IMG/VR virus record: IMGVR_UViG_3300027766_000001
Origin: a virus
Taxonomy: Duplodnaviria > Caudoviricetes
Direction: 5' to 3' (one strand)
DNA length: 64,000 nt
Shown here: one piece after another, positions 53,052-55,008 of the stretch
Layout: every line of letters begins with the position of its first letter
How positions within the stretch are numbered: position 1 is the first letter of the stretch
The notes under the pieces: generated by a model
What the model was told of the DNA's origin: nothing
The model's database searches: none
The model's input: only the letters and a program-made list of their open reading frames with translations
Program-made: the position numbers and the translations under genes

Positions 53052-53136
53052 GGCGGTGTCGCATAGCGGCAATTGCAGGGGACTGTAAATCCCCCGACTT
53101 CGGTCTTCGATGGTTCGAGTCCATCCGCCGCCACCA
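53052..53136 (+). tRNA. trnY: tRNA-Tyr (anticodon GTA), encoded CCA
   Basis: Acceptor GGCGGTG/CGCCGCC, discriminator A, anticodon loop CT-GTA-AA, long variable arm, GGTTCGAGTCC T-arm, 3' ACCA. Confidence 0.95.
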
Positions 53137-53411
53137 ACTTTGTTCAGGTAAGAGGCACAGGTCTGGCTGGTAACCAACCTGCAGCGATGATCGCGTAGAC
53201 CTACGGCATACCCATAAGTCCGTAAGAGCCGAACACATAAAGGACTACTGTTCCATCTGGATCAGGTAGGTGTTCTGATCGCTGACTGATTACTCGATAC
53301 GACAAGGCCTACACAGCCAACCCTAAACACCGAAATTAAGTTAATGGGCAAATGCATTCATGTTCAGGAAACCACATCTCGCTGACAGCTTTCAGCTTAG
53401 TGGAGATGAAC

Positions 53412-53714
53412 ATGAACATTTATAAAGTGGAACGTACTGACAATCTGGATTGGGATGAATTTGGGGGCATGGTCGTAATTGCTGCGTCTGAGGATGCTGC
53501 TAGGTTACTGCACCCCGGGGTCGTTCACCAATCTAATTGTGATGAAGTGCTGGATTGCATTAAGGAGTCACTGGAACAATTTGAGTGGGAAGCTAAGCGG
53601 TATCATCCGTCCTGGGTTCTACTCAAAGACGTCCATACTCTGCGCGTTACCCTAGTGGGAACAGCACACGCATCGTCCGCTGCTGTGATCCTTACGGATT
53701 ACAATGCCGGTTAA
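53412..53714 (+). CDS. Hypothetical protein (100 aa)
   Basis: GGAG RBS 6 nt before the ATG at 53412. Confidence 0.7.
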   Translation: MNIYKVERTDNLDWDEFGGMVVIAASEDAARLLHPGVVHQSNCDEVLDCIKESLEQFEWEAKRYHPSWVLLKDVHTLRVTLVGTAHASSAAVILTDYNAG

Positions 53715-53750
53715 CTTAAGTCCGGGCATGACCCGGACACCTATTCAGAA

Positions 53751-53819
53751 TTAGATTGATAGCAGCCAATGGGCTTTCACCCCATCACGCCCGGCTGACG
53801 GGAGCGGCGATCAGTCTAA
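53751..53819 (+). ncRNA. Candidate structured ncRNA
   Basis: 10-bp closing stem TTAGATTGAT/ATCAGTCTAA and inner CAGCC/GGCTG. Confidence 0.45.
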
Positions 53820-53845
53820 ACCCGAGTGCACTCGGGCACCCTTTT

Positions 53846-53931
53846 GAGGTTTCGGACAGCTGCGACTTTCAACTAAGTCATACTCGCTGAAGCCGACCGG
53901 ACTGTACGAATTGCAGTCTGTCCTTAACCTC
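53846..53931 (+). ncRNA. Candidate structured ncRNA
   Basis: Nested stems GAGGTT/AACCTC, GGACAG/CTGTCC, CTGCGA/TTGCAG and GACTT/AAGTC. Confidence 0.45.
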
Positions 53932-54035
53932 GATCCATTTAACATGATGAAGCATACCAAGAGTACGTGAGCGGAACTTGATCCCAATCACATCTGTTTA
54001 TCCATGCGATGATAAACTACTCGAGGAAATTCATT

Positions 54036-54422
54036 ATGTTGAATAAAGAAGTGCTGTTAGCCCTGACCCCGTCTCTGACCGGCTTTAAAGATGAAGACCA
54101 TGACTACGGCCAGGTCTGGTATGACGAATGGTACTTCCGCGTGGAGAACCATGAACGCTACCATATCGTCTTTGGCTGGTATGAGTACGAGGATTACTCA
54201 GGACATTCCTATGTCTTTGGTTACGACAAGGAAGAGGATAAGTTCTTTGAAGTGGTCGCCTACCATTGCTCCTGCTACGGCTTGGAGGAAGGTTGGGATC
54301 CTGAGTACTTCGAATCAACAGCGTTACTGGCTGATTACCTGGCGAAGTTCAAGGGTAAAACCTACTCTTCAGGTCAGCTGACTTTGGTTGCGTTCTTGAA
54401 AGAGTGCGGAATCGAAGTATAA
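54036..54422 (+). CDS. Acidic hypothetical protein with HCSCYG motif
   Basis: GAGGA RBS, motif YEDYSG...EVVAYHCSCYGLEEGWDPE. Confidence 0.7.
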   Translation: MLNKEVLLALTPSLTGFKDEDHDYGQVWYDEWYFRVENHERYHIVFGWYEYEDYSGHSYVFGYDKEEDKFFEVVAYHCSCYGLEEGWDPEYFESTALLADYLAKFKGKTYSSGQLTLVAFLKECGIEV

Positions 54423-54429
54423 CCGAATC

Positions 54430-54529
54430 GTCCGGATAGTTTAATAAGAACGGTGCGCCGGAATGCCCTTAAACTTACTAGGGGTGGTGTGCGCACAGGT
54501 GGTGGGGTCTGATCTCCCTCCGGACACCT
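54430..54529 (+). ncRNA. tRNA-like RNA A with expanded anticodon arm
   Basis: Acceptor GTCCGGA/TCCGGAC plus ACCT, TA-GTTT/GAAC D-arm, GTGCGC/GCGCAC stem capped by an extra hairpin, degenerate T-arm. Confidence 0.55.
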
Positions 54530-54538
54530 ATTCTCAAT

Positions 54539-54690
54539 GCTGGCACTAGCCAAACGGAAAGGCTTATACTTGGACGCTGAGTCGACGCAGTTATCAGCCA
54601 GGTATAGATTGCTCTGACAACACCATGTCATCATTAGACAATGTGATGTCATCATTATCGGGTTCGAGTCCCGGTGTGCTTCAGCTACCT
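54539..54690 (+). ncRNA. tRNA-like RNA B with canonical T-arm and expanded anticodon/variable arms
   Basis: TA-GCC-AAACGGAAA-GGC D-arm, 9-bp TATACTTGG/CCAGGTATA stem, TCGGG-TTCGAGT-CCCGG T-arm, bulged acceptor, ACCT. Confidence 0.5.
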
Positions 54691-54693
54691 CTT

Positions 54694-54803
54694 TGTCGTT
54701 AGCCTGATGAGTCGCCGACATTAAACGCGACGAAACGTAGAACATGAAATTCATCCACTGAGGATTCACCACCTCGGTGCCCGCTAGGCATGTTCTATGT
54801 AGC
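54694..54803 (+). ncRNA. Type I hammerhead ribozyme candidate with loop II pseudoknot
   Basis: CTGATGA (54704-54710), stem II GTCGC/GCGAC, GAAAC, 12-bp stem III, GTA triplet (cut after 54801), and TGTCG/CGACA pseudoknot. Stem I is only 2 bp. Confidence 0.72.
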
Positions 54804-54975
54804 AGTGAAGATTCATTGACCAAGGTGTCTCGAACTTACACAGCCTTCTGCTCATCGGGTCACTCCCGGTACCAAGGTGAGCAGCGGGGTGTGGTAATTT
54901 GTCCGGTTACTGCGTCAAGGGCTGTAGGGGTATGGTCCTGGTTTTATCCTCAGATGTTCCATGTGAAAGCGGCTA

Positions 54976-55008
54976 AACCCCGGGGGTAACACCTCGGGGT
55001 TTATGCCG
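54976..55008 (+). terminator. Terminator closing the RNA island, with TTATGCCG tail
   Basis: AAACCCCGGGGG-TAAC-ACCTCGGGGTTT followed by ATGCCG. Confidence 0.8.

Follow-up and report, generated by a model that had tools for sequence, protein, structure and literature searches.

Does a tRNA gene followed by a mostly non-coding, structured block in a jumbo phage genome give rise to a set of separate RNAs, and what would cut them apart? The question is raised by positions 53052-55008 of a 64,000-nucleotide (nt) stretch of DNA, here called the window, from the IMG/VR virus record IMGVR_UViG_3300027766_000001 (Duplodnaviria; Caudoviricetes). Its source is a phiKZ-like jumbo phage, the window encoding a multisubunit RNA polymerase beta subunit, a tail sheath and a terminase. 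The block of 1957 nt holds a tRNA-Tyr gene, two small genes (690 nt) and about 1267 nt of non-coding folded modules. Judged from the sequence and its conservation, we assign a probability of about 0.6 to the reading that this block is the distal, mostly non-coding part of a long plus-strand transcript which is processed into separate RNAs. That the block is processed into discrete stable RNAs appears quite probable on the same grounds. The parts needed for the argument are listed here, with open reading frames given as ORF and base pairs as bp.

53052..53136, + strand: tRNA-Tyr (GUA), class II with a long variable arm and an encoded CCA
53158..53318, + strand: RNA A, hairpin P1 and a 7-bp long-range helix enclosing two arms, with a conserved single-stranded tail
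53412..53714, + strand: ORF1, 100 aa, phrog_5444 (PHROG E 2e-20), no assigned function
53845..53933, + strand: RNA B, a long closing stem around a conserved core
54036..54422, + strand: ORF2, 128 aa, phrog_8792 (PHROG E 4e-23), an accessory gene with no assigned function
54430..54529, + strand: tRNA-like RNA C, a four-arm cloverleaf with covariation, one copy per genome
54693..54805, + strand: pseudoknotted type I hammerhead, predicted to cut between 54801 and 54802
54802..54945, + strand: RNA F, about 145 nt with four helices, its 5' end being the predicted ribozyme cut

The initial annotation had put the non-coding part at about 1.3 kb, which agrees with the 1267 of 1957 nt left after subtraction of the two family-supported ORFs; the block is thus not purely non-coding, since it holds two real genes. 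It had also described the block as a row of discrete, stem-closed modules, and these turn out to be conserved structured elements of the plus strand. The structures are assigned to plus-strand RNA because many G-U pairs of the helices would be mismatches on the other strand.

Relatives were found by blastn of deposited phages, by a scan anchored on the proteins of the flanking genes and by DNA patterns for the hammerhead, C, F, A and ORF1, whereby the scans covered viral, metagenome and genome contig collections. Blastn recovered the same locus in Salmonella phage vB_SalM_SA002 (288 kb; SA002) and in the Erwinia phages pEa_SNUABM_48 (pEa48) and _37 (294 kb). Three metagenomic versions were found in addition: L003 (=L008, L025), L004 (=L006) and L005 (=L007). 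The distinct related loci hence number five (SA002, pEa_SNUABM_48 and three metagenomic contigs), and together with the window they make up a six-sequence alignment. Within the viral, metagenome and genome collections scanned, the full island is confined to this one narrow clade of five distinct sequences; the remaining pattern matches lacked the rest of the motif and are put down to chance. In the alignment the non-coding modules are conserved equally to or better than ORF1, and A, B, C (loop AACUUAC) and F contain long unpaired stretches that do not vary. ORF2 and two modules described below, D (54539-54690) and I (with its flank 53747-53841), come and go between relatives. L004 and L005 are without ORF2, yet have C, the hammerhead and F directly after B.

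Compensatory changes among these orthologous loci support C, the hammerhead, F and A, and more weakly B. All 29 of the 29 pairs of RNA C form in every homologue (100%) and 12 of them are changed on both sides, compared to 0-2 in controls with slid partners. RNA F has 44 pairs, 96.4% paired, with 14 two-sided changes (0-3 in slid controls), and RNA A within the clade 38 pairs, 96.8% paired, with 7 two-sided changes (0 in slid controls). For the 27 pairs of the hammerhead, 92.5% of the cells are paired versus 20-54% with slid partners. Support for RNA B is moderate (24 pairs, 92.4% paired, 3 two-sided changes versus 0-2), its closing stem being rewritten almost completely between clades. The expectation of at least three folded RNAs besides the tRNA-like ones and the hammerhead is thus backed by covariation for A and F and moderately for B. 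A comparison of the folds with shuffled controls gave a mixed picture: RNA B (z-score -4.2, the best), the hammerhead (-3.3) and the module I insert (-3.3) stand out and the tRNA reaches -2.0, while F (-1.9), C (-1.5), D (-1.5) and A (+0.3) are unremarkable. As the z-scores are mixed, conservation and covariation carry the case and not thermodynamics.

The hammerhead is the best-defined element of the block. Its parts are arranged as follows.

54693-54698 with 54716-54721, + strand: pseudoknot between the strand just 5' of stem I and the first six nt of loop II
54700-54703 with 54802-54805, + strand: stem I
54704-54710, + strand: core CUGAUGA
54711-54715 with 54727-54731, + strand: stem II, 5 bp, with an 11-nt loop II (54716-54726)
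54732-54734, + strand: GAA
54735-54746 with 54789-54800, + strand: stem III, 12 bp, closing a 42-nt insert
54801, + strand: cleavage-site A

A strict descriptor comprising the core, stem II, a 6-bp stem III, NUH and 2 bp of stem I matches once in the window, at exactly the site where a hammerhead core had been proposed, and in none of 300 shuffled windows. The core positions C3 U4 G5 A6 N7 G8 A9, G12 A13 A14, A15.1-U16.1 and H17 are all present and invariant in the six sequences, apart from the two that are variable by definition (U or C at N7, A or C at H17). One two-sided pair change is seen in each of the three stems and in the pseudoknot, so that covariation extends to all three helices. 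It also extends to the tertiary contact: the pseudoknot has 5-6 bp, and different phages have U-A, A-U or C-G as its fifth pair. The distal half of stem III still pairs in L004, although its sequence there is unrelated. Exactly one such motif occurs per related genome. An invariant core among covarying helices and a covarying pseudoknot is what selection for catalysis looks like, and we regard the hammerhead as very probably a real and active ribozyme. A type III reading was rejected, as its stem I would consist of 2 bp with a 2-nt loop while the type I reading gives a covarying 12-bp stem III and the pseudoknot. No Rfam model reaches its threshold because stem III is closed by a structured insert of 29-58 nt which is not modelled. 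The fold of this insert (window 54747-54788; L003 6265-6322) varies between phages, as does its length. In L003, SA002 and pEa48 its loop GAGCAC can pair with a downstream GUGCUC to form a possible H-type pseudoknot.

Downstream of the predicted cut, RNA F ends in a terminator-like helix P4 (54918-54939) followed by a U-rich tail. A pairing of the 5' end of F with 54907-54913, which would have locked the cleavage product, was dismissed as a conserved helix; it appears in the minimum-energy fold of the window only, and the relatives use other registers or helix P1.

The cloverleaf of RNA C consists of a 7-bp acceptor stem followed by A-CCU, a UA connector, a 4-bp D arm, a 6-bp T arm with a bulge, and an anticodon-like arm of double length (5 bp, an internal loop, 7 bp) which carries the invariant 7-nt loop AACUUAC (54472-54478). 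The 3' tail is ACCU, ACCA or AACC depending on the homologue, so that acceptor stem, discriminator and CC(A)-type tail are all present. In the loop, A occupies position 33 where U33 would be expected, and the arm does not resemble a canonical anticodon arm. ARAGORN makes no call on RNA C and the Rfam tRNA model gives no match up to E = 10. A covariance model built for RNA C finds one copy per genome and matches true tRNAs end to end, although weakly. By its sequence RNA C is tRNA-shaped and not a decoder; it is perhaps derived from a tRNA. Its loop AACUUAC repeats part of the right arm of an inverted repeat around ORF1 which is described below. A kissing interaction of the loop with UAAGUU at 53337 was considered and set aside, as only 6 nt are complementary and both sides are invariant.

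RNA A also occurs outside the clade. Its core is present in 39 phage records including SPN3US, where it is nearly always unannotated; it was found through a short blastn match. Addition of two Seoulvirus sequences leaves 28 pairs, 97.4% paired, with 12 two-sided changes compared to at most 1 in slid controls. In Seoulvirus RNA A lies in a non-coding gap of about 0.8 kb within the tRNA cluster, downstream of the ORF1 homologue (SPN3US gp264), whereas in the window it lies upstream of ORF1. As its side of ORF1 differs between the clades, RNA A is not tied to one mRNA end. No hammerhead was detected at the three Seoulvirus loci examined (SPAsTU, pEa_SNUABM_29 and SPN3US), and neither C, B nor F at those of SPAsTU and pEa_SNUABM_29. 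SPAsTU and SPN3US both have a 7-bp UUCG hairpin with a CCUAUUC-type tail after the ORF1 homologue, analogous to minihelix 1 (see below). The unannotated non-coding islands in their tRNA clusters (SPN3US, NC_027402, L074, 2149-3451; SPAsTU, L071, 1373-2206) measure about 0.8-1.3 kb. Besides RNA A they hold further GC-rich folded stretches, weak tRNA-like matches (37 and 31 bits) and hairpins with ACCU-type tails.

RNA A has no Rfam match, and A, F and module I yield no Rfam family at E <= 10 apart from chance microRNA-type matches on hairpins. RNA B gives a single match of this chance kind (mir-5881, E 9.4). A scan of the flanks (48-60 kb) with the Rfam covariance models revealed no other ribozymes or known RNAs.

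How do the modules relate to the tRNA? ARAGORN and Rfam agree on a single tRNA in the 64-kb window, tRNA-Tyr(GUA) at 53052-53136, as had been annotated; it forms a canonical cloverleaf with anticodon and scores above the Rfam threshold (tRNA, 52.7 bits). Orthologues are found in L001 (SA002), L002 and L003, and none in L004 and L005. SA002 and pEa48 have two tRNAs each, both adjoining the island. One relative is without any tRNA: G001 (= L006, IMGVR_UViG_3300011242_000002) is complete at 273 kb with direct terminal repeats (CheckV 100%), and no tRNA gene was detected in the whole genome. A, B, C, the hammerhead and F are nevertheless all retained in G001. It follows that these RNAs are more than appendages of the tRNA, and their retention argues that the modules are selected for their own sake. 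In SA002 (L001) a weak tRNA match (541-611, 34 bits, not called by ARAGORN) overlaps the end of a hypothetical coding sequence, roughly where pEa48 carries its tRNA-Asn ahead of the island; the match may represent a tRNA in decay.

Whether all this belongs to one transcript depends on the signals at its borders.

48257-48273, + strand: copy similar to the promoter-like motif below, preceding the + strand gene array that runs into the island
54975..55002, + strand: second terminator-like hairpin, strong, closing the unit and conserved in all relatives
55027..55043, + strand: promoter-like motif starting the next unit, conserved in relatives

The motif TTTYAANYCTATATTAY matches six times compared to 1.3 expected, four of the matches (40853, 48257, 55027 and 61372) lying just upstream of plus-strand ORFs. 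It is likely to be a promoter class of the phage's own RNA polymerase. No match lies inside the island, none between the copies at 48257 and 55027 and none upstream of F. From 48300 to 53042 all ORFs are on the plus strand, and no strong terminator is met before 54918; hence the island looks like the tail of a unit of about 6.7 kb. The proposal of a polycistronic RNA is in line with this, as neither a phage-type promoter-like motif nor a strong terminator interrupts the block, which is compatible with one transcript. Instead of the one terminator first described, two tandem terminator-like hairpins close the unit. An Rfam mir-4872 match on the minus strand corresponds to the hairpin 54975-55002.

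Four smaller modules complete the block.

53720..53742, + strand: minihelix 1, a 7-bp stem with a 5-nt loop, then ACCU
53747..53819, + strand: module I, a stem-closed RNA (z-score -3.3) present in the window and L003 only
53821..53841, + strand: minihelix 2, a 6-7-bp stem with a UGCA loop, then ACCC and UUUU; window and L003 only
54539..54690, + strand: module D, a degenerate insert resembling a tRNA, T-arm at 54650-54666, tail UACCU

The smaller modules resemble what was expected of them to different degrees. Minihelix 1 follows the ORF1 stop in all relatives and has one compensatory pair (U-A to C-G). Two acceptor-like minihelices had been postulated, and the second is restricted to the window and L003. 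Likewise, of two presumed tRNA-like RNAs C is a fully compensated cloverleaf while D is weak. Module D occurs in the window, L003 and pEa48 only (absent from SA002, L004 and L005), has a canonical T-arm in the window only, gives no tRNA match by ARAGORN or Rfam and shows one compensatory pair in its closing helix. Module I, which SA002, pEa48 and L004 lack, differs by one compensatory change between the window and L003. ACCU-type tails follow C, D and both minihelices, in keeping with the ACCT endings noticed at first. The idea of a repurposed tRNA cluster is partly right; A, B and F are without tRNA features, and A is an independent family. A hairpin followed by ACCUAUU was rejected as a general terminator of the phage, as a hairpin with ACCYNWT is found at just 3 sites in 64 kb, 2 of them in the block.

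From these elements the following course of events can be proposed. Transcription would start near 48.27 kb and end at the tandem hairpins at 54.94 and 55.00 kb, so that the whole block would be co-transcribed. Cleavage at the tRNA, at cloverleaf C and possibly at the 7-bp minihelices would fall to the tRNA-processing enzymes of the host, presumably with RNase P acting on the 5' side and 3' trimming proceeding up to the ACC tail. The tRNA, C and the minihelices would thereby serve as punctuation between mRNAs and non-coding RNAs. It is plausible that acceptor-like helices with ACC tails are signals for RNase P or for 3' trimming. That C and the minihelices are in fact used as cut sites by tRNA-type enzymes is a tentative proposal for which we see slightly less than even odds. 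The hammerhead would cut itself between A54801 and G54802. The upstream RNA would then close with the 12-bp stem III and carry a 2',3'-cyclic phosphate, and RNA F would be released with a 5'-hydroxyl and its own terminator hairpin. A helix ending in a cyclic phosphate, and an RNA with a 5'-hydroxyl and a terminator, are expected to resist the main decay routes (RNase E, 3' exonucleases). The predicted maturation products are tRNA-Tyr, RNA A, short mRNAs of ORF1 and ORF2, and the RNAs B, C and F, of which A, C and F might act in trans.

Several points weigh against processing of one long transcript into these RNAs. The Rfam score of the hammerhead (Hammerhead_3, 30.3 bits, E 7e-4) is below the gathering score of 48.5, the model differing in topology and the underlying alignment corresponding to the type III reading without a proper stem I, and stem I of the type I form has just 2-4 bp. 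RNA C lacks the nucleotides of a tRNA elbow, its D loop AAUAA being without GG and its variable T loop without UUC. The tRNA elbow helps RNase P to recognise its substrate, and 7-bp hairpins are poor RNase P substrates. The folding z-scores of A, C, D and F are unremarkable, as mentioned. Internal transcription starts from other phage promoter classes are possible. Finally, the covariation counts rest on few independent events, because there are five sequences from one narrow clade.

Among the other explanations the one that survives best, unlikely as we consider it, holds that the modules act in cis only. Their role would be to define and protect ends, namely those of the tRNA and of the mRNAs of ORF1 and ORF2, and A, B and F would be by-products or protective 5' or 3' structures. 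This would account for the minihelices right after the ORF1 stop in every relative and after the ORF1 homologue of SPN3US and SPAsTU, for the 12-bp helix in which the cleaved upstream RNA would end, and for the terminators at the end of F. It does not account for L004 and L005, which keep C, the hammerhead and F after B despite having no ORF2, nor for RNA A, which changes sides of ORF1 between the window and Seoulvirus. Moreover the invariant single-stranded stretches of A, B, C and F would be unexpected in simple protective hairpins.

At the other extreme, the RNAs A, C and F could be the trans-acting products of a dedicated small-RNA locus of enterobacterial phiKZ-like phages, directed at tRNA-based immunity or at translation. 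This proposal takes in the location of the locus at a tRNA site, the sharing of A with SPN3US-like phages, C as a tRNA mimic and F as an RNA released by a ribozyme with a 5'-hydroxyl; we regard it as speculative and rather improbable in this full form.

More doubtful still is a narrower variant of such a role: the products would modulate translation or act as decoys of defences that sense tRNAs, anticodon nucleases among them (PrrC, RloC, PARIS, retron effectors). Phage tRNA-Tyr is known to counter the PtuAB nuclease of retron-Eco7, which degrades host tRNA-Tyr, and to rescue the cells (PMC11555353); the sole tRNA kept in the window is a tRNA-Tyr, and RNA C combines a tRNA-like outline with an invariant 7-nt loop that would read CUU. 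This loop, however, has A33 and sits on an arm of double length, the D and T loops of C are not tRNA-like, and A, B and F have no tRNA features at all. Since the tRNA-less relative keeps the other modules, these do not depend on a role of the tRNA.

The hammerhead, finally, might be an inactive relic or a structural element only, with F transcribed from a promoter of its own. Inactive hammerhead-like motifs have been reported in phages (PMC3088659), and the short stem I and the low Rfam score would suit one. The invariant core amid covarying helices and pseudoknot speaks against it, as does the lack of a promoter-like motif upstream of F, so that we give this explanation little credence. That the block is decaying debris of a tRNA cluster or a DNA-level element (origin, packaging or recombination site) is very improbable: D, I and ORF2 are variably present and tRNA genes are lost in some relatives, but the proposed pairs hold to 96-100% across many two-sided changes, the G-U pairs of the helices would be A-C mismatches on the other strand or in DNA cruciforms, and the non-coding parts are conserved equally to or better than the neighbouring genes.

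Processing of a long transcript, our preferred reading, would leave the two genes of the block with short mRNAs of their own. Searches of Pfam, of PDB sequences and of a protein atlas returned nothing usable on the function of ORF1 or ORF2. The ORF1 homologue gp264 sits in the tRNA locus of SPN3US. ORF2 occurs in the window, in L003 and in SA002; pEa48 has another ORF in its place, and L004 and L005 lack it. Such variation between close relatives is what one expects of a mobile accessory gene. A segment of ORF2 (54178-54316) is about 70% identical in nucleotide sequence to hypothetical genes found in Burkholderia phage FLC6 and in Ralstonia FLC4 phages.

Within ORF1 a stretch of 26 nt (53638-53663) is identical in all five distinct homologues. 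Here 8 of 8 codons of invariant residues, all of them 4- or 6-fold degenerate, are unchanged, while the rest of the gene keeps 14 of 35. The stretch may thus contain an element that overlaps the gene at the nucleotide level, perhaps a hairpin GUUACCC-UAGU-GGGAAC. ORF1 is furthermore bracketed by an inverted repeat.

53336..53344, + strand: left arm TTAAGTTAA, upstream of ORF1, invariant in all six sequences
53711..53719, + strand: right arm TTAACTTAA, overlapping the ORF1 stop codon

The two 9-nt arms are exact reverse complements of each other and may serve either in long-range RNA pairing or as a DNA site. It is part of the right arm that recurs in the loop of RNA C.

Punctuation of long transcripts by tRNA-like processing signals is familiar from mitochondrial tRNA punctuation, from the t-elements of plant mitochondria and from MALAT1/mascRNA. 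As in these systems, cloverleaf or acceptor-like helices with NCC(A) tails stand between other RNAs; in contrast, those cases are experimental and organellar or eukaryotic nuclear, whereas cleavage here is predicted. In phages, the tRNA region of T4 yields the stable small RNAs species 1 and 2. A further case is phiKZ gene 298, from whose 3' untranslated region a non-coding RNA ending at the terminator is processed (PMC8545117). The RNAs of the block are like these in being phage RNAs of unassigned function, linked to tRNAs or mRNAs, putatively processed and ended by a terminator. Unlike them, they would be released by a ribozyme, RNA A spans two jumbo-phage clades, and there is no similarity in sequence or structure.

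Self-cleaving RNAs of another class have been described at such sites: theta ribozymes, which resemble the ribozyme of hepatitis delta virus, adjoin phage tRNAs and are implicated in RNA maturation (PMC10879173). The hammerhead described here shares with them the placement of a small ribozyme in a phage tRNA locus. In contrast to theta ribozymes, its predicted cut makes the 5' end of a non-tRNA RNA and no tRNA end, and lies about 100 nt or more downstream of a tRNA-like element. Among natural hammerheads about 40% have pseudoknots linking stems I and II, and members occur in phage intergenic regions and flanking genes in polycistronic RNAs (PMC3088659). The one of the block resembles the natural pseudoknotted hammerheads (Rfam clan CL00010; Perreault et al. 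2011, PMC3088659) in its full core, three-helix junction, GUA or GUC cleavage triplet and the 5-6-bp pseudoknot joining the stem I side to loop II, and those of the phages PaP3 and Bcep176 in its intergenic and polycistronic context. It departs from the CL00010 hammerheads as modelled by an open stem I (type I) and by the 29-58-nt structured insert in stem III, and from known phage hammerheads by its setting in a phiKZ-like jumbo phage beside tRNA-like RNAs. In the paper collection searched, the single text with both phiKZ and hammerhead treats a different topic, and the literature found on SPN3US makes no mention of these RNAs. The class of the ribozyme is thus already known and this member is new, whereas the island is a variant of phage tRNA-region RNAs.

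Work on phage nuclei and on the evasion of defence uses the relatives of phiKZ and SPN3US among the jumbo phages as models, yet their non-coding RNAs are almost undescribed. The locus offers a candidate for a natural hammerhead from a phage of this kind, a tRNA mimic whose anticodon arm has been rebuilt, and an RNA family (A) which is unannotated in nearly all of the 39 deposited genomes, including SPN3US. If the locus acts in trans, the hammerhead would provide a maturation independent of nucleases, which could matter inside the phage nucleus away from host RNases. Should the RNAs act on tRNA-targeting defences or on translation, they would represent a new class of phage counter-measure. If not, the locus would still show how a ribozyme and tRNA-like punctuation may together cut up a long phage transcript.

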